From the NCBI GenBank assembly GCA_902576125.1, contig CACGUF010000003.1, positions 35,311 through 99,310 on the forward strand: 64,000 nucleotides of DNA. Direction: 5' to 3'. Position numbers and translations under genes: made by a program. Shown here piece by piece: positions 5,054 to 21,921 of this stretch (position 1 is its first letter; each line of letters starts with the position of its first letter). The notes beneath the pieces were generated by a model. That model saw nothing but the letters and a program-made list of their open reading frames with translations, ran no database searches and had not been told where the DNA came from. Origin of the DNA: an uncultured Alphaproteobacteria bacterium (GTDB lineage Bacteria; Pseudomonadota; Alphaproteobacteria; HIMB59; GCA-002718135).

Positions 5054-6519
5054 TATTTTAAATCCTCTATTACTTTTTTTGCAGCATTAAGACCGTTGAT
5101 ACCTGTTAATCCCCCTCCAGGATGGGTTCCTGCACCACATAAATATAAACCATTTATAGGTGTAGAATATTGAGCTGATCCATAAAAAGGTCTCATCATT
5201 AATAATTGATCTATTTCTAAATCACCGTGATGCCAATGCCCTCCTGCTATATTAAACTTTTCTTCCATTTTATTGGGAGTGATGAGTTTTTGTTTTACTA
5301 TTTTCATATCTGGAATAAATTTACTTAAAACTGAAACACATCTTTCAATTATTTCATTTTCTTGATGATTAGTATTAATTAAATACGGAACATAATAAAC
5401 ATTAGCTGATAAGGTTTTTTGATTAACGTAAAACTCAAGGCATGGATTTTCAGAATATTTGTTATATTTATTAGCATTAAATGCATGTTCTATGTACTTA
5501 ATGCCAGGAGCATAAATAAACTTTCCGTTCATTTTTTTATCAATATTATTAATGTTAATTTCATTTTCTAAAGCTAATTCAAGCTTAGCAACATTTCCTT
5601 TATTTCTAAAATTTTTAGTTCTTCTAATAAAATCAGTATCTAGGATTTCTGCACCTAATAAATTTAAATAAGTTGTTTTAGGGTCAGCATTAGACATTAC
5701 ATATTTTGATTCAAAACCCTCACCATTAGTTAATTGAACGCCAGTGACAGAGTTATTTTGAGTTAATATTTTTTTAACTTCAGAGGATTTAATGATTTCA
5801 ACAGTATTTTTATTACAGCAATCTTCTAACTGATTAATATATTCTGCAACTTCTATTTTGTTTAAATTAAAAATATTGTCATTGATAGCTTGTTTATAAA
5901 GTAAAGTTAATATTGAGCCTGGAGATCTTGGACCTAGGTTTGTTCCTAAAACAGCTTCATGGGATAATAGACCCATTAGATTATTGTTATTTAAATTATC
6001 TTCTAAGTCATCTGCGATATTTAAACCAATTACTCTTAATAGTTCACGCATATTTTTTTTACCTAATTTTCTAATTTTCCATCCCATAGAAATTAATTGA
6101 AATAAGTCAGCTCTTTTACCTGATTTAACTCTTGGTGGTTTTTGAAACATAAATGCACCAAGAGTTTTTGAAAACAATTTGTAGTTATTGATAATTGACA
6201 AGAATTTCTTTTGATCATTTTCATCAGCATTTGTTTGAACAAAAGATAATTTGCCGTTTTTATCTGACAAAATAGTATGATTTTGATTATCCTCTAGTGA
6301 TATAATATTATTTGAATGATTAATATTATTAACATTAATCCCTAATTCTTTTTTAATGATTGGTGAGATACAGTTTAGTGATTCTGCATATTCCGCTAAT
6401 CCTCCAACGTTTTCGTTTTTTTCAATTACCAAAACTTTTTTTCCTTTTTTTGATAAGTATGAAGATGCAACTAATCCATTGTGACCTCCACCAATTATTA
6501 TGACATCAAATTTTTTCAT
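5053..6519 (-). CDS. NAD(P)/FAD-dependent oxidoreductase, amine-oxidase/phytoene-desaturase fold (COG1233-like), paralog 2
   Basis: 488 aa. It has an N-terminal dinucleotide-binding motif FDVIIIGGGHNGLVASSYL..VLVIEKNENVGG and a C-terminal LYLCGAGTHPGGGLTG motif. Both are shared with the adjacent paralog. ATGA overlap at 6516-6519. Confidence 0.8.
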   Translation of the reverse strand: MKKFDVIIIGGGHNGLVASSYLSKKGKKVLVIEKNENVGGLAEYAESLNCISPIIKKELGINVNNINHSNNIISLEDNQNHTILSDKNGKLSFVQTNADENDQKKFLSIINNYKLFSKTLGAFMFQKPPRVKSGKRADLFQLISMGWKIRKLGKKNMRELLRVIGLNIADDLEDNLNNNNLMGLLSHEAVLGTNLGPRSPGSILTLLYKQAINDNIFNLNKIEVAEYINQLEDCCNKNTVEIIKSSEVKKILTQNNSVTGVQLTNGEGFESKYVMSNADPKTTYLNLLGAEILDTDFIRRTKNFRNKGNVAKLELALENEININNIDKKMNGKFIYAPGIKYIEHAFNANKYNKYSENPCLEFYVNQKTLSANVYYVPYLINTNHQENEIIERCVSVLSKFIPDMKIVKQKLITPNKMEEKFNIAGGHWHHGDLEIDQLLMMRPFYGSAQYSTPINGLYLCGAGTHPGGGLTGINGLNAAKKVIEDLK

Positions 6520-8144
6520 ATGTAATGTGTTGATATTTTCATCTTTAAATCTTTTAATATTTCTCTTGCTGCATTAGCTCCAGGTGCACCCATAACACCT
6601 CCGCCAGGATGCGTGCTTGATCCACACATATATAGATTTTTGATTGGTGTCTTATATTGAGCATAACCAGGTACTGGACGATTAAACATTAATTGGTCCA
6701 TGGTTAGTTCACCTTGGAATATATTGCCTTCAGTTAAACCAACCTCAGATTCTATTTCTTTAGGAGTTCTAATTTCTGCATGATTGATAATATCATTAAA
6801 GTTTGTCGAGTAATTGCCAATTCTATTCATTACATGTTTACCAAATTCAAGACGTTTCTCCTCAGTCCAACCTCCATTAGCTAAATTGTAGGGTACATAT
6901 TGAATAAATACAGACATATAATGTTTTCCTTGTGGTGCCATAGTTGGATCATTGATGCTTGGAATGCACATATCAACATAAGGAAATTGTGACCACTTAC
7001 CATCCTTCCAATCATCGTAAGCTCCTTCCATCTCTTCTATGTTTTGCGTTATATGCAAATCACCAGTGCCAGCAGGATCACCAACTGGAATACTCTTCCA
7101 AATAGGAAGATCATCAAGAGCAATATTTAATTTTCCTGATGAGCCTCTAATTTTAAAATTTTTGACAGCTTTATAAAAATCACTAGGTAATTCTTTTTCT
7201 TCTACAACTTTTAAAAAAGTTCTTTTTACATCAAGGTTAGAAACTATTTTATCTGCATAAATTTCATCACCATTCTCAAGAACAAGTCCATAACTTTTGT
7301 TATTTTTGATAAGAATCTGACTTACTGGTGAACCTGCTTTTATTTCACCATTGTTTGATTTTAAAGATGACGCCATAGCTTTTGTAATTGAGCCCATTCC
7401 TCCTCTGGAATACCCCCATGCTCCAACAGTCCCATCTACTTCTCCCATGTAATGATGTAATAATACATAAGCTGATCCAGGGGAATAAGGCCCAAGCGCT
7501 GTACCTATTATTGCAGATCCTGCTAAATGTACTTTTACTATATCTGATTCAAAATATTCTTCTAAATAATCTCTTACGCTCATTGTCCAAAATCTTATGG
7601 TGTCGTAAATTTCTTTTTCACCTAAACCACCAAGCTCATCTTTAGCTGCAAAGTATTTTGCAAATTCAAAAAGACCCATAATATCTTTTGGTTTAAAAGA
7701 AGTAGGGTCAGGAGGAGTCATTTTTAAAAGAGGTTTGATAATTTTGCATTGCCTCATTACATCTTTGCCAAACCTATCATAGGCTTCAGCATCTTTTTTT
7801 GAAAATTGAGCGATAGATCTGTATGTTAAATCATGATCTTGATAATGTGCATAAAATCTACCATCATTAAGCATACTCGCACTACCTTCATAAGGTATAA
7901 TTTGAAGCCCATGTTTTGATAATTCTAAATCTCTAAATATCTCAGGTCTTAATAAGCTGCAAACATATGAGCAATTAGAATAAGTCCAACCTGGATGCAA
8001 TTCTCTGCTAACAGCTGCGCCTCCAACATATTCATGTCGTTCCACAACAATGACTTTGAGACCCGCCTTAGCCAAATAACAGGCTGTGGTTAATCCATTA
8101 TGACCACCACCAATTATAGCAACATCATATTTAGTTTTGTTCAT
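6516..8144 (-). CDS. NAD(P)/FAD-dependent oxidoreductase, amine-oxidase/phytoene-desaturase fold (COG1233 / PYROXD2-like), paralog 1
   Basis: 542 aa. Motifs: YDVAIIGGGHNGLTTACYLAKAGLKVIVVERHEYVGG, GAWGYSRGGMGSITKA, LYMCGSSTHPGGGVMG. This is the first gene of the minus-strand operon. ATG at 8144. Confidence 0.8.
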   Translation of the reverse strand: MNKTKYDVAIIGGGHNGLTTACYLAKAGLKVIVVERHEYVGGAAVSRELHPGWTYSNCSYVCSLLRPEIFRDLELSKHGLQIIPYEGSASMLNDGRFYAHYQDHDLTYRSIAQFSKKDAEAYDRFGKDVMRQCKIIKPLLKMTPPDPTSFKPKDIMGLFEFAKYFAAKDELGGLGEKEIYDTIRFWTMSVRDYLEEYFESDIVKVHLAGSAIIGTALGPYSPGSAYVLLHHYMGEVDGTVGAWGYSRGGMGSITKAMASSLKSNNGEIKAGSPVSQILIKNNKSYGLVLENGDEIYADKIVSNLDVKRTFLKVVEEKELPSDFYKAVKNFKIRGSSGKLNIALDDLPIWKSIPVGDPAGTGDLHITQNIEEMEGAYDDWKDGKWSQFPYVDMCIPSINDPTMAPQGKHYMSVFIQYVPYNLANGGWTEEKRLEFGKHVMNRIGNYSTNFNDIINHAEIRTPKEIESEVGLTEGNIFQGELTMDQLMFNRPVPGYAQYKTPIKNLYMCGSSTHPGGGVMGAPGANAAREILKDLKMKISTHYI

Positions 8145-8152
8145 TGTATTTT

Positions 8153-8179
8153 CTTATATTTCTTTGAATGAGCATTCAA
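8153..8179 (-). promoter_or_regulatory. Candidate promoter of the flavoprotein operon: -35 TTGAAT (8179..8174), 15-nt spacer, -10 TATAAG (8158..8153), 8 nt before ATG 8144
   Basis: Hexamers were read directly on the minus strand. The spacer is short (15 nt), and AT-rich DNA makes -10-like hexamers common, so confidence is low. Confidence 0.3.
8164..8179. promoter_or_regulatory. 16-bp palindrome TTGAAT-gagc-ATTCAA; candidate TetR-family operator
   Basis: This is a perfect inverted repeat (it also reads as 7-bp arms TTGAATG/CATTCAA with a 2-nt spacer). It lies in the 76-91 bp divergent region between the flavoprotein operon (start 8144) and tetR (start 8221 or 8236). The same 6+4+6 core recurs at 19226..19241. 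Confidence 0.5.
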
Positions 8180-8235
8180 CCAAATTTCTTGTAAAATCAA
8201 GCTTTTTATGAAAAAATGTAGTGAATTTATTAAAT

Positions 8236-8859
8236 ATGAAACAAAGAAATCTTAGATCAGAAAATAAGAAAAATAGTAATTTAAAATTAATTTCTTCAAC
8301 AATTAAAAATTTATCAAAAAAAGGAATAAATGAATTAACTATGCAAGATGTATCGCAGGGAGCAGGCCTTTCCCAAGGTATAGTCAATTTTCATTTTAAG
8401 AGTAAGGAACTTTTATTAATAGAAACATTAAAGTATATTTCTAACGAGTATCTAGATTCATTTCAAAGAAGTATTGCGAAAAAAGGTAATGATCCAAGAA
8501 AAAAAATCATTGGAATTGTAGAAAATGATTTTAGTAAAAAAATTTGCACTAGAGAAAAAATTGCAGTGTGGTTTACTTTTTTTAGTGAAATTAAATATAA
8601 ACCCGCTTATCATCAAATTTGTAAAGAACGAGATATGTATTACCAATCTTTAACTGAAAATATATTTGATGAACTTATAAAAAAAGAAAAAGTGAAATTA
8701 TCTAAAAAAAATATTTCTAGAGGATTTCAAGCTTTGATTATGGGATTATGGTTAGATCAACTTGAAGATCCAGATACTTTTAACAGGATACAAGCAAAGA
8801 AAATATGTTTTGAGTTTATTAAATCTAATTTCCCCAAACAATTTAAGGGTATGTTTTAA
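8236..8859 (+). CDS. TetR/AcrR-family transcriptional regulator
   Basis: The N-terminal HTH is INELTMQDVSQGAGLSQGIVNFHFKSKELLL, followed by a helical ligand-binding domain. The ORF track starts at GTG 8221. I prefer ATG 8236 (MKQRNLRSE...). Confidence 0.85.
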   Translation: MKQRNLRSENKKNSNLKLISSTIKNLSKKGINELTMQDVSQGAGLSQGIVNFHFKSKELLLIETLKYISNEYLDSFQRSIAKKGNDPRKKIIGIVENDFSKKICTREKIAVWFTFFSEIKYKPAYHQICKERDMYYQSLTENIFDELIKKEKVKLSKKNISRGFQALIMGLWLDQLEDPDTFNRIQAKKICFEFIKSNFPKQFKGMF

Positions 8860-8861
8860 CA

Positions 8862-10040
8862 ATGTATAGTGGCATGACACCAAAAGCTTTGGAATGGCAA
8901 TTAAAGATAAAAAAATTTGTTAATGATGAATTAATTCCTTGGGAGGTGCATGCAGAAAAAAATGAAGGTGAGTTACCCAAGGAAATTGAAAAAAAACATC
9001 GGGAGATTGCTATTTCACTAGGTTTGCCGGGTATGGGTATTTCAAAAGAAAGCGGAGGCTTAGGATTAAATATGTTTGAACAGATGATAGTTTGGGAACA
9101 ATTAGGCCGAGTTACAAATGCATTATGCTGGTGTTTTTCAGAAGCTCAGGATTGGATGGAAAATAATTTTACTGATTATCAAAAAGAAAATTATTTTAAA
9201 CCACTTTTAAACGGTACTAAAAAAGAATGTTATGCGATTACTGAAAAAGGCGCTGGTTCAGATGTGGAAGGCTCAATTGAAACAACAGCAGAAAAAAAGG
9301 GAGATCAATATATTATTAATGGCGAAAAATGGTATGTTACAAGTGCAAATCTAGCTGATTTTTTCTTTTTACAGGCAAAAATTAAATCTGGCTCAAATAA
9401 GGGTAAGCATTCACTATTTATAATTGATAAGGATGAGAAAGGAATTGAGTTAATAGATAGCCCTAAGTTTAGTCATACATATGCTCATCATCATTCTATT
9501 TATAGGTTTGATAATGTTTCAATTTCAGATAAAAACATAATTGGGAATGAAGGTATAGGGATGGATTATACACATTCCTGGTTTAGGCATGAAAGACTAG
9601 GTATAGCTGCAAGATGCTGCGGGGCTGCTCAAAGATTAATTGATGAAGCAACAATTTTTGCAAAAGAAAGAGAATCTTTTGGTGATAAAATTTCAAACTA
9701 TCAAGCTATACAATTCATGTTAGCAGATAGTGTAAATGAATTAGCCTCAACCAGATTAATGCTTTATGAGGTTTGTAAAGCTCATGATGCAAAACAAGAC
9801 GTTAAAATTTTACATGGAAAATGTTCTATGATTAAATTACTTGCATCTGAAATGGCTAATAGAATTGCTGATCGTGCAGTGCAGATTTTTGGTGGAAGAG
9901 GATATATGAGAGAAAATGTTGCAGAACGTTATTATAGAGAATTAAGAGTGGACCGTATTTGGGAAGGAACAAGTGAAATTCATAGAATTATTATTGCAAA
10001 TTCTCTTTATAAAAGAGGTTTGAAATCTTTAATTGAATAA
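8862..10040 (+). CDS. Acyl-CoA dehydrogenase family flavoprotein (second copy)
   Basis: 392 aa. Motifs: CYAITEKGAGSDV, YIINGEKWYVTSA, SFGDKISNYQAIQFMLADS, RIWEGTSEIHRIII. It starts 2 nt after the tetR stop, so it is probably co-transcribed. Confidence 0.9.
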   Translation: MYSGMTPKALEWQLKIKKFVNDELIPWEVHAEKNEGELPKEIEKKHREIAISLGLPGMGISKESGGLGLNMFEQMIVWEQLGRVTNALCWCFSEAQDWMENNFTDYQKENYFKPLLNGTKKECYAITEKGAGSDVEGSIETTAEKKGDQYIINGEKWYVTSANLADFFFLQAKIKSGSNKGKHSLFIIDKDEKGIELIDSPKFSHTYAHHHSIYRFDNVSISDKNIIGNEGIGMDYTHSWFRHERLGIAARCCGAAQRLIDEATIFAKERESFGDKISNYQAIQFMLADSVNELASTRLMLYEVCKAHDAKQDVKILHGKCSMIKLLASEMANRIADRAVQIFGGRGYMRENVAERYYRELRVDRIWEGTSEIHRIIIANSLYKRGLKSLIE

Positions 10041-10061
10041 ATAAGGAGCTGAAAAAAAATT

Positions 10062-10946
10062 ATGATAAGTTTTTGGAGAAAAATTTATGCTAAAAATGAT
10101 AATGTTAAAGCCTATACTTTATTATCACCAGCTTTAATTTTAATTATTTTAGCTATGGTCGTACCAATGGTACTAATGTTGAGCTTTAGTATGTTTACTC
10201 AAGTTAACATGATGGAGATAGACTATACTTTTACCTTTCAAAGATATATTGATTTCTTTCAAAAAAAATTGCTTGTCACACTTCTCATAAAGTCTATTAA
10301 AATATCATTTCTTGTAACTTTAATTACTCTGATCACAGCATACCCAGTTTGTTATTACATTGCTTTTTATGTTAAAAAAAACAAAATGTTGTGGCTTGTT
10401 TTGCTTACTTTGCCTTTTTGGACATCATATTTATTAAGAGTATTTTCTTGGAAGATTATTCTTGGAACAAAAGGAGTGATAAACTCTTCATTGATCAACG
10501 CTGGAATTCTTAACGAACCTCTGACATTTCTTATGTATTCAGAAACCGCAGTTGTTATTACCCTTACTCATGCATGGGCTGCATTTGCATTACTACCTTT
10601 ATATGTTTCTTTAGAAAAAATTGACTTTTCTTTTATTGAAGCTGGAAGAGATCTTGGATTATCTCGATTTGAAGTGTTTTGGAAAATTACATTTCCATTA
10701 TCGTTACCTGGTGTAATAGGTGCAATATTAATCATATTCATTCCAACAGTAGGTGATTATGTAACTCCAGCCTTACTTGGGGGAACTGATGGTCGTATGC
10801 TTTCGAATATGATCCAAGCTTACTTTGGAAAAATAAACAATATTCCTCTCGGTGCAGCTTCAGCTACAATTATGTTAACTACTGTTGTAATCATAACAAT
10901 CATTGTATCGAATGTAACAAAAAAACTTACACAAAGGTTAACTTAA
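10062..10946 (+). CDS. ABC transporter permease, PotB-like (spermidine/putrescine-type importer)
   Basis: 294 aa with about 6 hydrophobic spans and the EAA-type loop IEAGRDLGLSRFEVFWKITFPLSLPG. An AAGGAG lies upstream of the start. Confidence 0.85.
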   Translation: MISFWRKIYAKNDNVKAYTLLSPALILIILAMVVPMVLMLSFSMFTQVNMMEIDYTFTFQRYIDFFQKKLLVTLLIKSIKISFLVTLITLITAYPVCYYIAFYVKKNKMLWLVLLTLPFWTSYLLRVFSWKIILGTKGVINSSLINAGILNEPLTFLMYSETAVVITLTHAWAAFALLPLYVSLEKIDFSFIEAGRDLGLSRFEVFWKITFPLSLPGVIGAILIIFIPTVGDYVTPALLGGTDGRMLSNMIQAYFGKINNIPLGAASATIMLTTVVIITIIVSNVTKKLTQRLT

Positions 10947-10948
10947 AA

Positions 10949-11758
10949 ATGAACGAAAAAAATAATACATTATTAATTTACACCCTTCTTTATTTTGGTT
11001 TTCTGTATGTGCCAGTTTTATTCCTACCTATATTTAGTTTTAACGATGCAAATTATATGTCATTCCCTCTTGCTGGATTTACAACGGAGCACTATGAGGA
11101 AATGTGGTCAAAAAGAAATTTACATAAGGCTCTATGGGCGAGTATAAAAGTAGGAGTTGTTGCGAGTGTCATTAGTACAACAATTGCACTTTTTGCCGCT
11201 AAGGCATTTGCTCGATATAAATTTAGAGGGGAAAAGATTTCTTATGGAGGTATAATGATGCCATTTTTGATACCAGAAATTATTTTGGCTGTAGCTATAC
11301 TTATAATTTGGATCAATCTTGGATTTAAATTGGGGCTCGTACCAGTCACAATTGGTCACACTTTATTTTGTACACCTTTTGCAATGTTAATACTTATAGC
11401 CCGTATTGAAGGCTTTGATTTTTCACTTGAAGAAGCCTCTAGAGATTTAGGAGAGAATGCGTGGGGAACATTTTTTAGAGTGTCATTTCCATTATATTTG
11501 CCTGGGATAGTCGCAGCTCTTCTTCTCAGTTTCATAATTTCTTTTGATGAATTTATTCTTGCATTTTTTTTAACTGGGAGTGACGCAACATTACCTATGT
11601 ATATGTGGGGCCAAATGAGATTTGTTCAGAAGTTACCTCATGTACTGGCATTAGGAGCAGTAATTATTGTTTTTACTACTTTTATTGTTTTATTAGCATT
11701 CTGGTTAAGAAATGTTGGACAAGGTAAAGGAAAGAAAGATATAGCTGTGAAATTATAA
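10949..11758 (+). CDS. ABC transporter permease, PotC-like
   Basis: 269 aa with the EAA loop EEASRDLGENAWGTFFRVSFPLYLPG. It begins 2 nt after the preceding gene. Confidence 0.85.
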   Translation: MNEKNNTLLIYTLLYFGFLYVPVLFLPIFSFNDANYMSFPLAGFTTEHYEEMWSKRNLHKALWASIKVGVVASVISTTIALFAAKAFARYKFRGEKISYGGIMMPFLIPEIILAVAILIIWINLGFKLGLVPVTIGHTLFCTPFAMLILIARIEGFDFSLEEASRDLGENAWGTFFRVSFPLYLPGIVAALLLSFIISFDEFILAFFLTGSDATLPMYMWGQMRFVQKLPHVLALGAVIIVFTTFIVLLAFWLRNVGQGKGKKDIAVKL

Positions 11759-11764
11759 AAAATT

Positions 11765-12847
11765 ATGAATAATTCATTTATACAGATCAATAATATTTCA
11801 AAACACTTTAAAGAAGTGAAAGCAGTTGATGATGTTTCATTTGAGATTAAAGAAGGTGAATTTTTTTCTCTTTTAGGACCCTCTGGATGTGGCAAGACAA
11901 CATTGTTGAGATTATTGGCAGGGTTTGAATACCCTACATATGGGAATTTATTAATTGATGGCACAGATATTACTGCTTTACCTCCAGACAAAAGACCTAC
12001 AAATATGGTTTTTCAAAACTATGCGATTTTTCCTCATCTTAATGTTGAAAAAAATATTCAATTTGGACTTAGAAAACTTGACTTAAGTAATGATGAGATA
12101 GGTAATAGAGTTAAAGATGTTCTTACATTAGTCAAGCTAGAGGGCTATGAAGAAAGATTTAGCAATCAGCTATCAGGTGGTCAAAGGCAACGTGTTGCTC
12201 TTGCAAGAGCTTTAGTCAGGCAACCAAAAGTGCTATTATTAGATGAACCTCTTGGTGCTTTAGATAAAAAATTAAGAGATGAAATGCAATTAGAATTAAG
12301 AACTCTTCAAAAAAATATTGGAATTACTTTTGTATTTGTCACTCACGATCAACAAGAAGCTATAAGTATGTCAGACAGAGTTGCAGTTATGAACGATGGA
12401 AAAATTCAACAGCTATCAGCACCCAATGAACTTTATAAGAATCCAAAAAATATATTTGTAAGTGATTTTATTGGTGAAACGAATTTTCTTAAAGCGGAAA
12501 CTAAATCGAGTGATGGAGAATTCATCAATGTTTCAATTGAAGAATTGGGAGAATTTAAAATTAAAAATAATTTAAATATCGCAGCAAATTCTTCGAATGT
12601 TGTTTGTAGTGTTCGCCCAGAATCTATGATGATTTCAAAAGTGAAATCTGACTGGGATATTTGTCTTGATGCTAAGATTAGACAGACTTCATATTTAGGA
12701 GAAATGACTAGATTTTATGTTGAGGTGCAAGGAATTGATAAGACTATCACTGTTTCTTCGCAACATTTTGACAATCAATCTTTTGAAAATAACGAGTGCT
12801 TTATAAGTATTAGCTTAGAAGATATTTCTTTATTGAATAAAAAATAG
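11765..12847 (+). CDS. ABC transporter ATP-binding protein, PotA-like
   Basis: Walker A GPSGCGKTT, signature LSGGQRQRVALARAL, Walker B VLLLDEPLGALD, H-loop FVTHDQ, plus a C-terminal regulatory (TOBE-like) extension. Confidence 0.9.
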   Translation: MNNSFIQINNISKHFKEVKAVDDVSFEIKEGEFFSLLGPSGCGKTTLLRLLAGFEYPTYGNLLIDGTDITALPPDKRPTNMVFQNYAIFPHLNVEKNIQFGLRKLDLSNDEIGNRVKDVLTLVKLEGYEERFSNQLSGGQRQRVALARALVRQPKVLLLDEPLGALDKKLRDEMQLELRTLQKNIGITFVFVTHDQQEAISMSDRVAVMNDGKIQQLSAPNELYKNPKNIFVSDFIGETNFLKAETKSSDGEFINVSIEELGEFKIKNNLNIAANSSNVVCSVRPESMMISKVKSDWDICLDAKIRQTSYLGEMTRFYVEVQGIDKTITVSSQHFDNQSFENNECFISISLEDISLLNKK

Positions 12848-12877
12848 CCCGCTCTCAAAAAGAGAACAGGCTATTTT
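12841..12877. terminator. Hairpin between convergent genes (candidate bidirectional terminator)
   Basis: AAAATAGCC (12841-12849) pairs with GGCTATTTT (12869-12877). An inner TCTC/GAGA stem (12853-56 with 12862-65) encloses an AAAAA loop. The A- and T-tracts form the stem ends. The hairpin overlaps the potA-like stop codon (TAG 12845-47) and lies 20 nt from the binding-protein stop (12897). Confidence 0.5.
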
Positions 12878-12896
12878 GAGATAAATTAATTTCTGA

Positions 12897-13985
12897 TCAA
12901 CCGCCAGCAACCATTTCAGCCCATTGAGCTTCCATATAGTCAGTTACCTCATCTGAAGGCATCACAGAGAACATTCCATTTGAAAGGTGTTCTGCAGGAT
13001 TAGCCGCTACTCCACGTTCCGCTAATTCATCAGCAGTAATTGTGCTAAAGCCTTTCTTGTTTGAATGACCATAACCCCACTCACTTAATAAATAAGCTGA
13101 AGTTTCAGCACTAGTAGCTCCATTAATCATTGCATATGCTTTATCAAGGTCTGCACCTTTAACAATGGCAAGCCCACAAGCCCACGTCATTGTACCATTA
13201 GCAGGTTGCATCATTTTTGCACCAGCATTCCATGCAATTTCGTTCCATCCAAGAGCTACGTCTATTTCTTCGTTACCTAGCGCCTCTACCATTGAGGAAG
13301 TGTCTCCGAAGAATGCACGTATTTGTCCGTTATCTCTCATTTCACGGAACTTATTGATACCTTTATCAATAGCAGCTTTAGTTAATTGATCTTTTTCTCT
13401 GATATCAATTCCAAGATGATGCATCATTAAAAATAATGAGTCAGCAGCTGAGTCTAATATACCAACTTTACCTTTTACTCTTGGGTCTTCCATTAGATCA
13501 AAACTTTCATTATCAGCGTTCATCCATGGAATTCGATCAGCCATGTAAAATAAAGTAGTATCACCCCAATCGATAGGTGCAAAATAATTCTGACCATCAA
13601 CAATACCACTTGGTAGGTCTCTTACTTCAGGAAACATATCATCCCAGTGATCTATTCGAGAAGTGTCCAATGGTTCAAGTACTCCAGCTCTAACCCAACG
13701 AGCTATTTCACCTTGGCATGGCCAAGCTAAATCGACTTCAAAACCAGCTTTTAATTTTTGTAAACCTTCTTCAGCATCACCGAATGTTGAATATTCAGGT
13801 GACCCATGTTCTTCTACATATGTTCCAAATAGTCCATCATCATCATATCCGCCCCATAGAAAAACACTTCCAGGCTCATCAGCAAAAACCTTTGATGTGG
13901 TAAATAATCCGGTTATAAAAACCATCAATATTGCCACCCCTAAAGTTTTTACTAAAAAATTTTTAGTTTCATAGTATTTAGGCAT
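12897..13985 (-). CDS. Periplasmic substrate-binding protein, PotD/PotF-like (ABC importer, family 1)
   Basis: The N-terminus has a signal peptide (MPKYYETKNFLVKTLGVAILMVFITGLFTTSKVFA). The mature protein is acidic, rich in Trp and Gly, and poor in Lys. The ORF track starts at TTG 13997. I prefer ATG 13985, which is preceded by GGGGGT 4 nt upstream. It is convergent with potBCA. Confidence 0.8.
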   Translation of the reverse strand: MPKYYETKNFLVKTLGVAILMVFITGLFTTSKVFADEPGSVFLWGGYDDDGLFGTYVEEHGSPEYSTFGDAEEGLQKLKAGFEVDLAWPCQGEIARWVRAGVLEPLDTSRIDHWDDMFPEVRDLPSGIVDGQNYFAPIDWGDTTLFYMADRIPWMNADNESFDLMEDPRVKGKVGILDSAADSLFLMMHHLGIDIREKDQLTKAAIDKGINKFREMRDNGQIRAFFGDTSSMVEALGNEEIDVALGWNEIAWNAGAKMMQPANGTMTWACGLAIVKGADLDKAYAMINGATSAETSAYLLSEWGYGHSNKKGFSTITADELAERGVAANPAEHLSNGMFSVMPSDEVTDYMEAQWAEMVAGG

Positions 13986-14118
13986 TTTTACCCCCAATAA
14001 ATTTTAATTAATTGCTACATGAACAATAATTTGAGAAAATTTCAATAAAAAATAACAATTTTTATAAATTAGGTTTTAATTTATTTTTTTGAAACCATGG
14101 CTCTATTTGCTCTAATTG

Positions 14119-14320
14119 ATACCCTGCTTGGAAAACGGGTATATATCATCATAGGGATTTCCAACTATTTGTACTCCTGTAAGCACACCATTCTTAGCTA
14201 TGCTTGAACAGATTAATAATACTGGTAATCAATAGGGCATATTAAAAGGGTAAAACAAAGTTCATTTATCTTTAAATTTCAACAGCTGATATATAATGCA
14301 AAACTACAGATATTGCCCTA
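14119..14320. other. Candidate structured RNA or complex regulatory element inside a 380-bp intergenic gap (strand undetermined)
   Basis: GC is locally elevated compared with the flanking AT-rich spacer. Hairpin 1: ATACCC (14119-24) with GGGTAT (14137-42), 12-nt loop. Hairpin 2: AAGCA (14181-85) with TGCTT (14201-05). Long-range helix: TAGGGCATAT (14233-42) with ATAT(T)GCCCTA (14310-20), 10 bp with one bulge. Alternative pairing: TACCCT (14120-25) with AGGGTA (14247-52). All pairs are Watson-Crick, so the strand cannot be inferred. Confidence 0.3.
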
Positions 14321-14331
14321 ATTTAATTAAA

Positions 14332-14360
14332 TAGACATTCAATTTTTTTTTACATATAAT
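14332..14360 (+). promoter_or_regulatory. Candidate sigma-70-type promoter: -35 TAGACA (14332-37), 17-nt spacer, -10 TATAAT (14355-60); ATG at 14366
   Basis: The -10 is consensus, the -35 has one mismatch and the spacing is ideal. Only 5 nt separate the -10 from the start codon, which implies a leaderless or near-leaderless mRNA. The -35 overlaps a one-mismatch copy of the palindrome (TTAAAT-agac-ATTCAA, 14327-14342). Confidence 0.45.
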
Positions 14361-14365
14361 TTTTT

Positions 14366-15751
14366 ATGACTTTTAAAAATAGCAAAGTTTTAATTGCTAC
14401 AGCTGATGAATTTAATTCTTTTAAAGAAAAAAATCCAGAAATAAAATACATAGATGCTATTTTAAGTGATTTATCAGGAGTTATTAGAGGCAAAAGATTA
14501 CCTATTAATGATGCTGAAAAACTATTTAAGTCAGGAATTCAATTTTGTTATTCAACTTTTTTATTAGATGTTACGGGTTATTGTCCTGATGCAGCAGGAA
14601 GAGGTTTTACTGATGGAGATCCAGATGCAACTTATTTTCCTGTAGCTGGAACTTTAAAAAAAATGCCATGGCATAAAGATTCTTTAGGACAAGTGTTAAT
14701 CACAATTCAAGATGATTCACGATATAGCTCCATAATAGACCCAAGAAATGTACTAGCTAGAGTTTTAGATAGAACTGAAGATTTAAATTTACAATTTAAA
14801 GTTGCTTTTGAATTAGAATTTTATCTTTTTAAAAAAAGAAAAAATATTTCTGAAAAGCCAGAACCAGCAATATCAAACGAAACTAACAAACAAAGTGAAG
14901 GAACTCAAGTTTATGGAATGAGAGAATTAGATGAATTCTATGATTTTTTGGAAGATGTTAATGAATTTTGTAAAATACAAAATATTCCTGCATCAACTGC
15001 TTCATCTGAATTTGCCCCAGGTCAATTTGAAATAAATTTAAATCATACCAATGATATTCTGAAAGCAGCAGATGACTCAGCATTATTAAGAAGAGTAATA
15101 AAAGAAACTGCTATTAAGCATGGTTATGAAGCAAGCTTTATTTCTAAACCATTTATTGAGCAAACTGGGAGTGGTATGCATGTTCATATAAGTTTGTTTA
15201 ATGAAAAAAATCAAAATATTTTTTCCGGACCTAAAGAAGAAGGAAGTGAACAATTACATTATGCAATTGGTGGTTTACAAAAAACATTATATGATAATTT
15301 TTTAATTTTTGCTTCTAATGTAAATTCTTATAGGCGTTTTGAGCCTGATCAATTTGTTCCTGTAAACAATTCGTGGGGTCCTAATAATAGATCTGTAGCT
15401 TTTAGAATACCAAGAAGTGATGAAAAATCCAAAAGAATTGAGCATAGAGTAGCAGGAGCTGAAGCTAATTCTTATTTAGTTCTTTCTGCTATTTTATCAG
15501 GAATTCATTACGGTCTTATTAATAAAATATCTCCTACAAAATTTAGAATTGATAATGCTTGCACTGACCCTGATCCTGAAATGCCCAAATCTATCGACAA
15601 GGCTATTCAATTATTTGAAAACTCAAAATTTTGTATTGATTATTATTCAAAAGAATATGTGACAATGTTTTCTGATTTAAAAAGAAAAGAAATCGAATCT
15701 TTTCGTACTGAAATTTCCGATATTGAATATAAGTGGTATCTTAATCTTTAA
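14366..15751 (+). CDS. Glutamine synthetase-family ligase (gamma-glutamyl-amine/polyamine synthetase-like, PuuA/GlnA3-type), copy 1
   Basis: 461 aa. GS catalytic-domain signatures are present: GSGMHVHISL, NSYRRFEP, RIEHRVAGAEANSYLV. The N-terminal beta-grasp domain is also present. Confidence 0.85.
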   Translation: MTFKNSKVLIATADEFNSFKEKNPEIKYIDAILSDLSGVIRGKRLPINDAEKLFKSGIQFCYSTFLLDVTGYCPDAAGRGFTDGDPDATYFPVAGTLKKMPWHKDSLGQVLITIQDDSRYSSIIDPRNVLARVLDRTEDLNLQFKVAFELEFYLFKKRKNISEKPEPAISNETNKQSEGTQVYGMRELDEFYDFLEDVNEFCKIQNIPASTASSEFAPGQFEINLNHTNDILKAADDSALLRRVIKETAIKHGYEASFISKPFIEQTGSGMHVHISLFNEKNQNIFSGPKEEGSEQLHYAIGGLQKTLYDNFLIFASNVNSYRRFEPDQFVPVNNSWGPNNRSVAFRIPRSDEKSKRIEHRVAGAEANSYLVLSAILSGIHYGLINKISPTKFRIDNACTDPDPEMPKSIDKAIQLFENSKFCIDYYSKEYVTMFSDLKRKEIESFRTEISDIEYKWYLNL

Positions 15752-16610
15752 TTTCACCGTTAAGACTAAGTATTTCTTTATAAAGCTCAGGTCTTCTATC
15801 TCTAAAAAGTCCCCAATTTCTTCTGAATAAATGATTTTCTTCAGTATCTATTTCGGCTATTATAACTTCCTCTTTGTCTTTTGAAGCTTCAGCAATTATT
15901 TTGCCAGATCTATTACAAATAAACGACCTTCCATAAAATCCATTAACTTGACCTTTTACTGACTCTGAGCCAATTCTATTTGATGCAACAACAGGCATGA
16001 TATTTGCTGCTGCGTGACCCTGCATTACAGTCTGCCATGCATCAGAGCTATCATAAGTGCTCATTATTTCATCCCCAATAGCTGTAGGATAAAATAAAAT
16101 CTCCGCTCCTTTTAAAGCCATTATTCTTGCAGCTTCAGGAAACCATTGATCCCAACAAATCCCAATACCAATTTTACCATAAGTTGTGTTCCAAATTTTA
16201 AAACCAGTATCACCTGGATTAAAATAGTACTTTTCAAGATATCCAGCGCCATCAGGTATGTGTGACTTTCTATATTTTCCTAGTATTTTACCATCAGCAT
16301 CAATAACTGCTATAGAATTAAAATATGCATTATTATCTTTTTCAAAAAAACTGATAGGCAAAACAACTTTATGTTTTTTTGCGACGTCACTCATTTGATT
16401 TATTAAGGAATTATTTTCAAAAGGTTGGGCTAATTTGAATATTTCCTCATCATATTGAATACAAAAATAAGGAGTTTGAAAGAGCTCTTGTAATAAAATT
16501 ATATTCGCTCCTTGTTCTGCAGCTTTTTCAATTAAATGGATAGATTTTTTTATATTATTTTCAATTTCCCAATCACAAGTCATTTGAGTGGCCGCTACTT
16601 TAATTTTCAT
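15741..16610 (-). CDS. aguB: N-carbamoylputrescine amidase (nitrilase superfamily)
   Basis: 289 aa. The sequence reads KVAATQMTC...ILLQELF..YRKSHIP..GIGICWDQWFPEAAR (Glu-Lys-Cys triad context). The length and motifs are typical of CPA. Confidence 0.9.
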   Translation of the reverse strand: MKIKVAATQMTCDWEIENNIKKSIHLIEKAAEQGANIILLQELFQTPYFCIQYDEEIFKLAQPFENNSLINQMSDVAKKHKVVLPISFFEKDNNAYFNSIAVIDADGKILGKYRKSHIPDGAGYLEKYYFNPGDTGFKIWNTTYGKIGIGICWDQWFPEAARIMALKGAEILFYPTAIGDEIMSTYDSSDAWQTVMQGHAAANIMPVVASNRIGSESVKGQVNGFYGRSFICNRSGKIIAEASKDKEEVIIAEIDTEENHLFRRNWGLFRDRRPELYKEILSLNGEIKD

Positions 16611-16824
16611 TTTTTATTCTCTTTTTTTCTTCTAAGTAATTATTTAAACTTATAATTTTTTTGCTTGCATTAGTTTCGAATAAACCTGGTATTAAAGAGT
16701 GAATAAATGCCATCATTGAAGCTTTAAGTAATTGAAATGATATATTTTGAGCTACAAACATATGTTGAAAATAAGTTTCATTAGCATCAATGTAGTGTTT
16801 TTTTGATTTTTTAAACAAATTCAT
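16600..16824 (-). CDS. Small conserved-looking hypothetical protein (74 aa; resembles the alphaproteobacterial DUF6356-type family as I recall it)
   Basis: The preferred start is ATG 16824 (MNLFKKSKKHYIDANETYFQHMFVAQNISFQLLKASMMAFIHSLIPGLFETNASKK...), 2 nt after the aguA stop. Its 3' end overlaps the aguB start by 11 nt. The track ORF (to 16860) would overlap aguA. Confidence 0.5.
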   Translation of the reverse strand: MNLFKKSKKHYIDANETYFQHMFVAQNISFQLLKASMMAFIHSLIPGLFETNASKKIISLNNYLEEKKRIKNEN

Positions 16825-16826
16825 TG

Positions 16827-17870
16827 CTAAATGCTTAATGGTTGTTGTTGGGTTATGCAATGAATATTTCCACCACCTAGAGAAATATCTATTCCATTAA
16901 TTGCTATAACTTTTCTTTTAGGAAAAATTGATTGAATAATATACTTAGCATTTCTATCAGCTTTTTCATCATCAAAACTGGGCATTACTATTCCATTATT
17001 CGCAATATAAAAGTTTATATAAGAGCTTGGTTCATTATCATTAGGTATGAGTCTTTTATAAGACATTTCAATTTCTATAATTTCTAATGGAAGGTTATTA
17101 GCATTTCGAGATGTTTTTAATATTTCTAAATTTTCATTTATCTTTTCATAAAAAGGATCTTGTTTATCATAACAGGATAAGGCTAAAACTTTAGATTGAT
17201 CAACAAAACATGCAATATTATCAACATGTCCATCAGTTCCTTCATCTGTACCATGTTTTAGCCAGATAATTTTTTTTATATTCAAGTATTTTTTTATGTT
17301 ATCTTCTATTTCTTCTTTTGTAAGATCAGGATTTCTATTTTTATTTAAAAGGCATTGCTCAGTTGTGATTAATGTACCTGCTCCATCAACGTGTATGGAC
17401 CCACCTTCAAGTACCATTGGTGATTTAAAATATGTTGCGGAACTTTCATTTATCATAAATTTAGCAATTTTATTATCAGAGTCATGTGGTGAAAATTTAC
17501 CCCATCCATTAAACTCCCAATCAACACCTCCTAATTTTTTTTGATCATTTAGGAGAAATGTAGCTCCAGAATCTCTAGCCCAACAATCGTCATTTTGAAA
17601 TTCATAGATATTTATTGACTCATCAAGTAATTTCTTGGCAGTTTCTATATCATGAGGATTAACAATCATTTTTACTTTTTCAAAATTTGATATTGCTTTA
17701 GCGACTTCTGCCCATTTATATCTTCCTTTTTCAAAATCAAAATGTGACCAACTTTCAATTTCTTGATATGAATTTTCATTACTAAACTCATGAGGCCACT
17801 GCATCCAACAACATTCATGAGGATACCACTCTGGAGGCATAAAAAAATTAAATTGTTGAGGATATTTCAT
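16827..17870 (-). CDS. aguA: Agmatine deiminase
   Basis: 347 aa. Motifs: FFMPPEWYPHECCWMQWP, DCWARDSG, GGSIHVDG, HVDNIACF, and the C-terminal catalytic-Cys block GGGNIHCITQQQP. Confidence 0.9.
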   Translation of the reverse strand: MKYPQQFNFFMPPEWYPHECCWMQWPHEFSNENSYQEIESWSHFDFEKGRYKWAEVAKAISNFEKVKMIVNPHDIETAKKLLDESINIYEFQNDDCWARDSGATFLLNDQKKLGGVDWEFNGWGKFSPHDSDNKIAKFMINESSATYFKSPMVLEGGSIHVDGAGTLITTEQCLLNKNRNPDLTKEEIEDNIKKYLNIKKIIWLKHGTDEGTDGHVDNIACFVDQSKVLALSCYDKQDPFYEKINENLEILKTSRNANNLPLEIIEIEMSYKRLIPNDNEPSSYINFYIANNGIVMPSFDDEKADRNAKYIIQSIFPKRKVIAINGIDISLGGGNIHCITQQQPLSI

Positions 17871-19207
17871 TAATATTTATCAATATATTTATAGTAAGCT
17901 AAGGCTAATTTTAAGTAAAATAATCTTAGTTTAGGTAGAGGAAATTTACTTGGTAAACCTTTATAAATTTTAGATATTTTTAAATCTTTACTATTCGATA
18001 CAATCAATTTTGCAAGCTCGTTACCTGACCACGGTGCTGTGTTAACTCCATTTGCCTGATAACCAAAACTATAATATATTTCATCATCATCAATTTTCCC
18101 AATTGAAGGTGAAAATTTATTTGTCACTGCAACAAGCCCTCTCCAATGAAAATCAATATTTACATTATTCCACTTAGGAAAAACCTTTTTCATTTGTTGC
18201 TCCATATTTTTAGATTTCTCTAATGAAGATTTTTCACTGCCAATCAAATCACCTCTTGCTCCAAATAAAAATCTATTATCCTTTAATAACCTATAATAAA
18301 AAAGAAGATTTCTTATATTTAGGACTGGATTGTTTGTAATAAAATTATGAGATTTAATTTCTTCACTTGTAAGTGGTCTTGTAATAATAATATTTGATAT
18401 TACTGGCAAAATCATATTATTTAGTTTTGGAAAGATATCATCTTTATAAAAACCGTTAGTTGCCATAACAATTTTATTTGCTTTTACAATGCTTCCATTT
18501 GAAATTATTTTGAACTTTCCTTTAAACTTTTCAATTTTTGTAACTTTACTTTTTTGAAAAATTTTAACTCCTGAATTATTGGCAACATTGGCAATACCTA
18601 GTAAAAATTTTAAAGGATTAATAGCAAATCCAGGTTTATAAGACATAGCTCCAAATTGCTCATTACCACCGTGACCAATTTCATTAAACTCTTCTTTAGA
18701 AAAAACTTTTGTTTCAATACCAAATTCTTTTTTGTATGTTGTAGCTTCTTCTTTTATCCCTTCAAAATAACTTGGATGAGGAGCTACTTCATAGTTACTA
18801 TCACCTGTTAAATCACAATCTATGTTGTATTCTTGAATTATATTTTTTGTAAAATTTGAACCCTCAATAGTGTTTTGAAAAAATTTTTTTGTTTCATTTT
18901 TTCCATATTTATTAAACATTTTTTTAACAGACATTTTTGCTGGAGGAATACAGCAAAATCCTGCATTTCTTCCTGAAGAACCCCAGCCAATATGACCTGC
19001 CTCAAGTAATACTACATCTTCATTATATTTTTTCGCTAATGATAATGCGCATGATAAACCAGTATATCCTCCACCAATTACAGCTACATTTGTATTAATG
19101 TCTTTATCTAAAGTTTTATATTTATCTTTTGTGTCTACTGTAGATTCCCAGTAACTATTTACAGGATTTTCAAATTTATAAATGTCATCGTGATATAAGT
19201 TAGCCAT
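17870..19207 (-). CDS. FAD-dependent oxidoreductase (DAO family), gamma-glutamylputrescine oxidase (PuuB)-like, copy 1
   Basis: 445 aa. Motifs: VAVIGGGYTGLSCALSLAKK and EAGHIGWGSSGRNAGF. There is a 1-nt overlap with the aguA start. Confidence 0.8.
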   Translation of the reverse strand: MANLYHDDIYKFENPVNSYWESTVDTKDKYKTLDKDINTNVAVIGGGYTGLSCALSLAKKYNEDVVLLEAGHIGWGSSGRNAGFCCIPPAKMSVKKMFNKYGKNETKKFFQNTIEGSNFTKNIIQEYNIDCDLTGDSNYEVAPHPSYFEGIKEEATTYKKEFGIETKVFSKEEFNEIGHGGNEQFGAMSYKPGFAINPLKFLLGIANVANNSGVKIFQKSKVTKIEKFKGKFKIISNGSIVKANKIVMATNGFYKDDIFPKLNNMILPVISNIIITRPLTSEEIKSHNFITNNPVLNIRNLLFYYRLLKDNRFLFGARGDLIGSEKSSLEKSKNMEQQMKKVFPKWNNVNIDFHWRGLVAVTNKFSPSIGKIDDDEIYYSFGYQANGVNTAPWSGNELAKLIVSNSKDLKISKIYKGLPSKFPLPKLRLFYLKLALAYYKYIDKY

Positions 19208-19212
19208 AAGTT

Positions 19213-19241
19213 AGTATAAATTTCATTGAATGCTTATTCAA
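19213..19241 (-). promoter_or_regulatory. Candidate promoter for the puuB-like/aguA operon: -35 TTGAAT (19241..19236), 17-nt spacer, -10 TATACT (19218..19213), 5 nt before ATG 19207
   Basis: Read directly on the minus strand. The geometry matches the 14332-14360 promoter. The -35 hexamer is the right half of the palindrome. Confidence 0.4.
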
Positions 19242-19242
19242 T
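19225..19242. promoter_or_regulatory. 18-bp palindrome ATTGAAT-gctt-ATTCAAT; candidate TetR-family operator (core TTGAAT-N4-ATTCAA, 19226-19241)
   Basis: This is a perfect 7-bp inverted repeat with a 4-nt spacer. It lies in the 53-bp divergent region between the puuB-like gene (start 19207) and the Rieske oxygenase gene (start 19261). A TATAAT at 19251-56 lies 4 nt before ATG 19261. Confidence 0.5.
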
Positions 19243-19260
19243 CAATATTATATAATAGAT

Positions 19261-20493
19261 ATGAATAATACTGATCTAAAAAACTTAATTCACAAGCAAA
19301 AACTTAATTTTTCTCTAGACCAGGAATTTTATGTAAATCAGGATATTTTTGATTTAGATATTAAAAATATTTTTTCTAAACAATGGGTTTTTGTCGGTCA
19401 TATTTCAAGGATACCAAATCTTGGTGATTACTTTCTTTTTAATATTGGAAAAGAATCAATAATTATTATTCGTGATAATGATGATTCAATACATGCTCAC
19501 TACAATGTGTGCCGTCATCGTGGCTCTCAAATATGTTTAGAAAACGAAGGTAATGCAAAAGTTCTAACTTGCCCTTATCATGCTTGGTCATACAATTTAG
19601 ATGGGTCTTTAAGAGGTGCTAGACTCATGGAAAAAGGTTTTAATAAAGATGAATGGCATTTACATAAATGTCATTCAAAAATATTTGAAGGTTTAATATT
19701 TATTAATTTATCTGAAAACCCAAATGATTTTGAGGAATTTATTGCTCCAACTAAAAAATTTATACAATTTCATGGACTTTCAGATGCCAAAATTGCTCAC
19801 AGACAGTATTATCCTACAAATGGGAATTGGAAACTTACTCTCGATAATTTTCATGAATGCTATCATTGTCAGCCATCTCACCCAGAATACTGCCAAGTAC
19901 ATGATAAAGATTATATTATAGCTTATGGTGCGGGAAGTAATACGGGACCTTCATCTGATAAATTTGATAAGATTTTAAATGACTGGAATAAAAAAGTAGA
20001 AAAAATGGGTCATCTTACTGGTGAATATACAGAGAGAGAATTTAATGATTATTCTAGAAGTGCTGAAAGAACACCATTGAAAGAAGGTATGTTTACAGAA
20101 ACAAAATCAGGAAAACCTGCTTCTATCTTAATGGGTAATTTTACAGATTATGATTGTGGTTATACATCTGTTGGAACTTCTCCATTTAATAGTCTTCTTA
20201 TGTGTAATGATTTTGCTACTCTCTTTACATTTATTCCGGTGAACCCATTATATACTCAGGTAGAATTAATGTGGTTGGTTCATAAAGATGCTGAGGAAGG
20301 AAAAGATTATAATCTTGAAGAAATGAAGTGGATGTGGGATGTAACTACAATTGCAGATAAAAGAATTATAGAAAATAATCAAAAAGGTGTTCTATCAGAT
20401 AAATATGTACCTGGACCTTTATCTCAAATGGAAAAAGGATTAGAGAAATTTAAATCTTGGTATTTAAGACACTTAGAAAATAGTATTAGTTAA
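19261..20493 (+). CDS. Rieske [2Fe-2S] non-heme-iron oxygenase, alpha (catalytic) subunit
   Basis: 410 aa. The Rieske motif is CRHRGSQIC-x11-CPYHAWSY (CxH-x17-CxxH). The catalytic-domain iron motif is LDNFHECYHCQPSHPEY. No beta subunit, ferredoxin or reductase gene lies nearby. Confidence 0.85.
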   Translation: MNNTDLKNLIHKQKLNFSLDQEFYVNQDIFDLDIKNIFSKQWVFVGHISRIPNLGDYFLFNIGKESIIIIRDNDDSIHAHYNVCRHRGSQICLENEGNAKVLTCPYHAWSYNLDGSLRGARLMEKGFNKDEWHLHKCHSKIFEGLIFINLSENPNDFEEFIAPTKKFIQFHGLSDAKIAHRQYYPTNGNWKLTLDNFHECYHCQPSHPEYCQVHDKDYIIAYGAGSNTGPSSDKFDKILNDWNKKVEKMGHLTGEYTEREFNDYSRSAERTPLKEGMFTETKSGKPASILMGNFTDYDCGYTSVGTSPFNSLLMCNDFATLFTFIPVNPLYTQVELMWLVHKDAEEGKDYNLEEMKWMWDVTTIADKRIIENNQKGVLSDKYVPGPLSQMEKGLEKFKSWYLRHLENSIS

Positions 20494-21854: not shown

Positions 21855-21921
21855 AGGATATATAAAATTAGAGTTATTCTTGTTTAGAGGAATAAATTAG
21901 ATAAAGACATATATATTTTTT

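Follow-up and report, generated by a model that had tools for sequence, protein, structure and literature searches.

A predicted TetR-family operator at three divergent junctions of an import and catabolic locus in a HIMB59-type alphaproteobacterium

A 64-kb stretch of DNA from an uncultured HIMB59-type alphaproteobacterium (contig CACGUF010000003.1; hereafter the window) contains a BetI-like TetR-family regulator gene (tetR) and three copies of a short palindrome with the consensus wTGAAY-N4-RTTCAw. Judged from sequence comparisons, the palindrome is very probably the operator of this regulator. The three copies mark the three divergent junctions of the block at 649-20493, in which each transcription unit faces an operator. 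An earlier note on this DNA had proposed, from two of the copies, that this TetR controls both of their surroundings as a single regulon. The proposal is supported, and the predicted regulon is extended to three operators. Support comes from sites at orthologous positions, the same core beside distant tetR genes, the top three ranks for a weight matrix built from foreign sites, and operon linkage in Pelagibacterales. Computation established the sites and showed that they are conserved, co-occur strictly with the regulator family, and overlap promoters, as described below. Coordinates of all features are given in Table 1.

Sites 1 and 2 were read directly from the sequence and are perfect palindromes. 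Site 1 (TTGAATGAGCATTCAA; TTGAAT-GAGC-ATTCAA) lies in a 91-bp divergent spacer between the minus-strand flavoprotein operon (ATG at 8144) and tetR. Site 2 (TTGAATGCTTATTCAA; TTGAAT-GCTT-ATTCAA) lies in a 53-bp divergent spacer between a DAO-type flavoprotein gene (ATG at 19207, minus strand) and a Rieske oxygenase gene (19261), and its arms lengthen to 7 bp at 19225-19242. A pattern search returned these two as the only perfect TTGAAT-N4-ATTCAA copies in the window. The pair, the arm extension, and the placement in short divergent spacers (from the open reading frame (ORF) listing and Pfam) had all been reported in the earlier note and were reproduced. One-mismatch copies were found at 1604, 14327, and 61511, the last of which had been overlooked. 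The copy at 14327 is site 3 (TTAAATAGACATTCAA; TTAAAT-AGAC-ATTCAA), 24 nt 5′ of a glutamine synthetase (GS)-like gene. It had been dismissed as a chance-level near-match, a reading contradicted by its conservation and by its second rank with the foreign-site matrix. The remaining two lie inside coding sequence, at 1604-1619 in the acyl-coenzyme A (CoA) synthetase gene and at 61511-61526 in ORF 61051-63426, and are probably chance matches.

No operator copy was found in the remaining 22 intergenic regions of the window by palindrome recurrence or weight-matrix scans. The divergent spacer at 21855-21921, between a second GS-like and a second DAO-type gene, has no match even at two mismatches. 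The regulon appears to end near 20.5 kb, though genes beyond that point are paralogues of regulon members.

Close relatives were collected by a genome-collection scan centred on the binding-protein gene of the locus. The scan gave 56 loci, 10 of which are syntenic, HIMB59-type, and encode a TetR 70-100% identical to that of the window. These closest genomes are of the HIMB59/AEGEAN-169 type and not Pelagibacteraceae, contrary to the expectation that the relatives to compare would be Pelagibacterales. The sites occupy the same position in every syntenic locus that covers them, and both perfect palindromes proved to be kept at orthologous positions with invariant arms and variable spacers, the outcome that footprinting had been suggested to look for. 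At site 1, the spacer is GAGC or GACC (10 genome and 23 close metagenome loci). Site 2 is kept in 6/6 syntenic loci that cover it, with GCTT or GGAT as spacer. Site 3 is kept in 9/10 syntenic genome loci, spacer included, and also in a group whose TetR is 77% identical and whose flanks differ. Overall, the pattern extends over the 10 genome loci and 29 further metagenome loci, in which flanking codons and outer intergenic DNA are variable.

Distant TetR orthologues from Pelagibacterales and from GC-rich Alpha- and Gammaproteobacteria are 32-40% identical to the window TetR. The core TGAAY-N4-RTTCA lies beside their genes, in DNA that is otherwise unalignable. All other loci from the genome scan belong to Pelagibacteraceae; they encode no TetR within 10 kb, and each contains exactly one TTGAAC-AGCT-GTTCAA. 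This internal copy (TTGAACAGCTGTTCAA) lies 19 nt 5′ of an aminotransferase gene that heads Rieske, DAO, and ATP-binding cassette (ABC) genes. A TetR gene was predicted to lie just past the end of these loci, and homologues of the second flavoprotein led to it: in Pelagibacterales, a divergent gene encoding TetR_N and TetR_C_6 domains adjoins the first flavoprotein gene. The spacer between tetR and the flavoprotein gene in Pelagibacterales holds ATTGAATAATCATTCAAT, TTGAACATTCATTCAA, or TTGAATATTCATTCAA. The internal copy is found wherever the aminotransferase gene is preceded by an intergenic gap and is missing where 5 nt separate that gene from the GcvT gene. The Rieske and DAO genes of Pelagibacterales lie within the operon or operons headed by the same operator, in one block with the flavoprotein and GcvT genes. 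Because these operons carry them under the same operator, the Rieske and DAO genes of the window, 11 kb from tetR, can be linked functionally to the rest of the locus.

In GC-rich bacteria that have the same divergent gene cluster, the corresponding spacer retains the AT-rich core, usually as the sole match in 13-21 kb. These bacteria comprise Aestuariispira insulae, a Rhodospirillaceae and a Woeseiaceae metagenome-assembled genome, and contigs of 2.7 Mb and 748 kb. Operator and regulator also occur together in loci L063-L077 and L158-L160. In a further AT-rich lineage, a second core copy (TGAATGCATATTCA; L159 14656 and L160 11973) precedes an aminotransferase-major facilitator superfamily-acetyltransferase unit 3′ of the cluster. 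Operator copies before aminotransferase genes recur in several lineages. Ahead of the internal Pelagibacterales operator TTGAACAGCTGTTCAA stands one more conserved half-site (AATTCAAT-TA-; L017 17960-18010 and equivalents in L009-L053), which forms a second, overlapping inverted repeat reminiscent of double-dimer FadR-type sites.

A census of the regulator family was made by a metagenome scan with a TetR alignment. Eighty loci were picked on protein motifs alone, and 78 of them have at least 100 nt upstream of tetR. A perfect TGAAY-N4-RTTCA was found between -260 and +40 of tetR in 23/23 close and 49/55 distant loci (72/78), against 0.06 cores expected from base composition per set and 0.12 in total. 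The census loci range from 24% to 70% GC, and only 3 core matches occur in their remaining 331 kb. Two of the six loci that lack a perfect core carry one-mismatch copies, and in two others the TetR gene stands last in the ABC operon. A position weight matrix (PWM) was built from 12 sites, all outside the HIMB59 group. Over approximately 64,000 window positions its top three matches are sites 2, 3, and 1, all intergenic (Table 1). The fourth is the coding copy at 1604 (10.3 bits), and all other matches score below 9 bits.

The helix-turn-helix (HTH) recognition helix is conserved family-wide, including the 32-40%-identity orthologues. It tracks operator subtype: GLSQGIVNFHFKSKE occurs with the single inverted repeat and GLSQGIINLHFQSKD with a 20-bp double inverted repeat in GC-rich relatives. 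The 20-bp form, ATGAATGA-N4-TCATTCAT, would imply two overlapping dimers.

It is improbable that the palindrome is a real operator bound by some other factor encoded elsewhere, such as a global regulator, while TetR binds another sequence. Only 64 kb of the genome is visible, and several regulator families use half-sites like TTGA-N-TCAA. A scan of 50 window ORFs gave no second DNA-binding regulator; the only other transcription-related product found is a DksA homologue (40954-41361), which binds RNA polymerase. The other-factor explanation is opposed by the way the motif tracks tetR, approximately 60-240 nt from its start, in loci of 24-70% GC from several orders that were picked on TetR similarity. 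It is opposed as well by the shift of operator subtype along with the recognition helix, and alignment of relatives showed no other conserved palindrome in the tetR spacer. Moreover, a TetR-family protein of known structure binds sites of exactly this type (PMC5397183).

The operators overlap -35 boxes, as expected for repression. At site 2, the promoter scan confirmed the minus-strand promoter TTGAAT/17/TATACT read in the earlier note, and TTGAAT/17/TATATA was read by eye on the plus strand. At site 3, the scan found TAGACA/17/TATAAT (11/12 matches) with its -35 in the palindrome centre, in agreement with the reported overlap of 14327-14342 with the -35 of the GS-like gene. A strict promoter scan returned no promoter at site 1. 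By eye, the right arm of site 1 lies 15 nt from TATAAG, which could serve the flavoprotein operon, and the left arm lies 22 nt from TAAAAT, the only plausible tetR -10.

These arrangements bear on the suggestion, made in the earlier note, that the arms are merely -35 hexamers (TTGAAT resembling TTGACA) of back-to-back promoters; the palindrome would then be a by-product to which no regulator binds. This is quite unlikely, although part of it holds: some arms do double as -35 boxes. Both arms of site 2 are in -35 register, and the left arm in Pelagibacterales is in register with TATAAT or TATACT. Out-of-register arms, which are conserved just as well as those in register, and conservation in GC-rich DNA are left unexplained. 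The left arm of site 1 is out of register with the tetR -10, and the -35 of site 3 is central, outside the arms. The internal Pelagibacterales site has no divergent gene, yet its second arm is kept in more than 30 loci. Among GC-rich relatives, A takes the outer position (ATGAAT...ATTCAT), away from TTGACA, while the inner core and 4-bp spacing are fixed. The absence of copies from the other 22 intergenic regions of the window also argues against simple promoter hexamers.

The start codons of the Rieske, DAO, GS-like, and Pelagibacterales aminotransferase genes lie 5-8 nt 3′ of the best -10 hexamers. These short distances suggest leaderless or near-leaderless mRNAs.

Chance recurrence of two copies in AT-rich intergenic DNA is extremely unlikely, a judgement that depends on the relatives. 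Dinucleotide shuffling predicted 0.09 perfect copies and gave at least 2 copies in 1/100 shuffles, a test that ignores the post-hoc choice of pattern and so overstates significance. Recurrence alone is not rare: the window has 83 recurring palindromes with 6-bp arms (spacer 0-10), 10 of them with G or C in the arm. Within intergenic DNA (3.5 kb), TTGAAT-N4 is the sole recurring G/C-containing palindrome, and any such recurrence arose in 5/300 first-order Markov simulations of that DNA (p ~0.017). Without relatives, the recurrence is moderately unlikely by chance and suggestive only. Because within-window significance is modest after the look-elsewhere count, the case was rested on comparative data. 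Retention of the palindrome at orthologous positions and in distant taxa effectively refutes chance, and on these comparisons the palindrome is overwhelmingly non-random. A nucleic-acid hairpin (terminator, attenuator, or RNA element) instead of a protein site is hardly credible: a 6-7 bp stem with a 4-nt loop could form, but such stems would be of low stability (-2.6 and -3.9 kcal/mol), no fold is obtained for site 3, the sites have no T-run, terminator call, or Rfam family, and they lie upstream of predicted transcription starts.

Several points weigh against assigning the operator to TetR. We infer TetR binding, the sign of regulation as repression, and the identity of the inducer. The operator scan of this genome covers the 64-kb window only. 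Many of the 72 positive census loci are mutually close, and independent lineages number perhaps 10-25. At site 1, an entire 54-bp block is invariant in close relatives, and the palindrome is singled out by distant comparisons only; promoter overlap at this site depends on by-eye reading of weaker hexamers. No flavoprotein/GcvT cluster without TetR was found (10/10 lineages carry TetR), which leaves no site-loss control.

With the palindrome as the TetR operator, a TetR homodimer would bind the three copies (8164, 14327, and 19226), one per divergent junction of the 20-kb, 16-gene block. Bound TetR would compete with RNA polymerase at -35 elements, the classical mechanism and the most economical one here. 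Six units in all would be repressed: its own operon (tetR, acyl-CoA dehydrogenase, and ABC importer genes), the divergent flavoprotein/GcvT/acyl-CoA operon, the GS-like gene (perhaps with the binding-protein gene), the DAO/agmatine-deiminase unit, and the Rieske gene. A small-molecule ligand would free the repressor; this is probably either the methylated amine or osmolyte that is imported or an intermediate of the pathway, which may be a CoA thioester.

The binding-protein gene is possibly controlled by site 3 through the promoter of a lost gene. Near-identical relatives have an amidase gene (491 aa; L003 8453-9928) between the binding-protein and GS-like genes that is lost in the window. In L003, site 3 lies in the 58-bp divergent spacer between the amidase and GS-like genes, and the binding-protein gene follows the amidase gene by 72 nt on the same strand. 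About 45 nt of the amidase 5′ end remain at window positions ~14261-14305, with the start codon mutated.

Table 1. Coordinates of predicted operators, promoter elements, and genes of the proposed regulon
Feature	Coordinates	Strand	Evidence or remarks
Predicted operator site 1	8164-8179	.	Perfect palindrome; conservation; foreign-site PWM 12.1 bits, rank 3
Predicted operator site 2	19226-19241	.	Perfect palindrome; conservation; foreign-site PWM 18.4 bits, rank 1
Predicted operator site 3	14327-14342	.	One mismatch; conservation; foreign-site PWM 15.3 bits, rank 2; overlaps -35
Invariant promoter/operator block around site 1, 54 bp	8147-8200	.	Alignment of 11 sequences; adjoining codons variable
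Candidate tetR -10, TAAAAT	8192-8197	+	By-eye reading
Candidate flavoprotein-operon -10, TATAAG	8158-8153	-	By-eye reading
tetR, BetI-like TetR-family regulator, proposed binder	8236-8859	+	Pfam TetR_N, TetR_C_6; NCBIfam
Predicted target operon A, 5 genes	649-8144	-	Pfam and NCBIfam; divergent from tetR in every lineage examined
Operon A: CrtI/amine-oxidase-like flavoprotein 1	6516-8144	-	Pfam/NCBIfam
Operon A: CrtI/amine-oxidase-like flavoprotein 2	5053-6519	-	Pfam/NCBIfam
Operon A: GcvT-family folate-dependent aminomethyltransferase	3851-5053	-	Pfam/NCBIfam
Operon A: acyl-CoA dehydrogenase	2693-3844	-	Pfam/NCBIfam
Operon A: ADP-forming acyl-CoA synthetase	649-2703	-	Pfam/NCBIfam
Predicted target operon B, 3′ of tetR	8862-12847	+	Pfam; pair of tetR and acyl-CoA dehydrogenase kept in most distant loci
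Operon B: acyl-CoA dehydrogenase	8862-10040	+	Pfam
Operon B: two ABC permeases	10062-11758	+	Pfam
Operon B: ABC ATPase	11765-12847	+	Pfam
PotD/PotF-type solute-binding protein of importer	12897-13985	-	Pfam SBP_bac_8
GS-like gene (gamma-glutamyl-amine synthetase type), predicted site 3 target	14366-15751	+	Pfam Gln-synt_C; promoter 14332-14360
Predicted site 2 minus-strand target unit	15741-19207	-	Pfam; promoter TTGAAT/17/TATACT at 19241-19213
Site 2 unit: DAO-type flavin adenine dinucleotide (FAD) oxidoreductase	17870-19207	-	Pfam
Site 2 unit: agmatine-deiminase-like gene	16827-17870	-	Pfam
Site 2 unit: carbon-nitrogen hydrolase, beyond 216-nt gap	15741-16610	-	Pfam
Rieske oxygenase alpha subunit (GbcA-like), predicted site 2 plus-strand target	19261-20493	+	Pfam Rieske, Ring_hydroxyl_A
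Start codon/-10 proximity examples	19249-19263; 19205-19218; 14355-14368; L017 ~17965-18005

Putative functions in the block were assigned from family matches. The GS-like protein scores 171 bits with NCBIfam gamma-glutamylputrescine synthetase, under the cut-off, and the Rieske protein scores 330 bits with glycine betaine monooxygenase (cut-off 670). The best family matches of the GcvT protein are the folate domain of trimethylamine N-oxide demethylase and dimethylsulfoniopropionate (DMSP) demethylase, all under cut-offs. Those of the acyl-CoA dehydrogenase adjoining tetR are acryloyl-CoA reductase and crotonobetainyl-CoA dehydrogenase, also under cut-offs. Relatives add genes for a DgcA-like flavin mononucleotide enzyme, an aldehyde dehydrogenase, a class III aminotransferase, and an enoyl-CoA hydratase. 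A tRNA-Leu(TAA) at 38519-38603 is the only RNA gene found in the window.

The earlier note had spoken of a polyamine/Rieske locus. The polyamine label is doubtful for the importer because the SAR11 PotD was shown to bind glycine betaine and DMSP: the single PotD of Ca. P. ubique (SAR11_1336) binds glycine betaine (Kd 2 nM), DMSP, and other osmolytes, and not polyamines (PMC11485210). SAR11 strains have one potABCD system each (PMC8437039). Orthology of the window binding protein with SAR11_1336 is unproven by sequence; the names of clusters and of homologues were no more specific than "spermidine/putrescine-binding", and no solved structure was found. A pathway in which a methylated amine or osmolyte is demethylated step by step and degraded through CoA-dependent reactions would fit the gene content at least as well as polyamine catabolism. 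The agmatine deiminase, carbon-nitrogen hydrolase, and GS-like genes are compatible with the label and keep a polyamine-type nitrogen route open.

The importer genes (10062-13985) encode proteins 83-97% identical between the window and Pelagibacteraceae (L009-L033), and products of the adjoining catabolic genes are 35-56% identical. Pelagibacterales binding-protein types differ by ~30% from one another. The importer looks as if it moved recently by lateral transfer between the two orders.

Relatives of the regulator are encoded in more than 526 metagenomic stretches from Alpha- and Gammaproteobacteria. We tentatively suggest that the circuit is an undescribed, widespread TetR regulon that, in SAR11 and HIMB59, switches on the "PotD" importer and an uncharacterised pathway for a methylated amine or a betaine/DMSP-type osmolyte. 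That pathway might comprise a Rieske demethylase, two CrtI-like flavoproteins and GcvT, an aminotransferase, and CoA-dependent steps. SAR11 and its HIMB59/AEGEAN-169 neighbours dominate the surface ocean, and the "PotD" importer is among their most expressed proteins. A widespread regulon, if true, would be among very few substrate-responsive transcription-factor circuits in streamlined, supposedly weakly regulated bacterioplankton. These groups are widely described as having little transcriptional regulation (discussion, PMC12992908). A repressor-operator pair joining the importer to a 16-gene catabolic block would be a concrete regulatory circuit in them, and interest in it comes mainly from the organisms and the importer involved. 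The predicted regulon offers a guilt-by-association handle on pathway and substrate. The organisms are genetically intractable, but a compact operator and its repressor could be studied in vitro or in a surrogate host.

The window TetR (207 aa) was compared with known repressors. It matches PF00440 TetR_N with 35.1 bits (cut-off 24; residues 19-63) and PF13977 TetR_C_6, the BetI-type C-terminal ligand domain, with 47.3 bits (cut-off 27). A literature search for the operator strings gave no match. Like members of the TetR/QacR paradigm, it has a TetR_N HTH, lies 91 nt from a divergent target operon, and has a 16-bp palindrome in the spacer, which would imply autoregulation. Unlike them, it would act through three operators over 11 kb on six transcription units rather than one adjacent target, and its predicted targets serve catabolism and import, where the paradigm has an efflux pump.

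BetI, the choline-responsive repressor of bet genes, is the best NCBIfam match of the window TetR, below both cut-offs (TIGR03384, 106.2 versus 201.3 bits; NF001978, 101.9 versus 118 bits), and shares the BetI-type C-terminal domain. Divergent-spacer autoregulation, a palindrome over -35 boxes, and TTGA/TCAA half-site ends are known for BetI (PMC12442346) and predicted here, and both have targets in quaternary or methylated amine metabolism. For Ruegeria BetI1, the betI box reads ATTGACG·CGTCAAT and is said to conform to the E. coli/Pseudomonas/Sinorhizobium consensus (PMC12442346). Its TTGA-TCAA gap is 4 nt, versus 8 nt in the window sites (PMC12442346). No betA, betB, or betT (GMC oxidoreductase, betaine-aldehyde dehydrogenase, BCCT transporter) was found among the neighbouring genes. 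Identity as canonical BetI was rejected on the sub-cut-off scores, the lack of bet genes nearby, and the operator spacing.

FadR (YsiA) of Bacillus is an acyl-CoA-responsive TetR-family protein. The crystal operator of B. halodurans FadR, GATGAATGAAT·ACTCATTCAT, is made up of two 16-bp inverted repeats that overlap with a 4-bp offset, and it binds a dimer of dimers (PMC5397183). The inner repeat, ATGAAT-ACTC-ATTCAT, shares the core TGAAT-N4-ATTCA and the spacing with the window sites (PMC5397183). The site of locus L075 (GAATGAATACTCATTCATTT) includes this inner repeat exactly, and GC-rich relatives share the 20-bp arms. Genes for acyl-CoA dehydrogenases, an acyl-CoA synthetase, and, in relatives, an enoyl-CoA hydratase are among the predicted targets here. 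The FadR-type operator hints that a CoA-thioester intermediate, not the substrate, may be the inducer. In contrast to FadR, the window TetR has a BetI-type ligand domain (PF13977). It scores only 29 bits with NCBIfam Bacillus FadR (NF053878, cut-off 200), over the DNA-binding domain only, and similarity of that domain to B. subtilis FadR reaches only E = 0.004. The window sites are single inverted repeats, for which one dimer is expected, whereas the FadR box is double. The regulon here would serve amine or osmolyte import and demethylation, not fatty-acid beta-oxidation. The circuit is an ordinary TetR regulon in kind, with a previously undescribed regulator that, as far as sequence can indicate, acts in the manner of FadR- or BetI-type repressors without being a member of either family.

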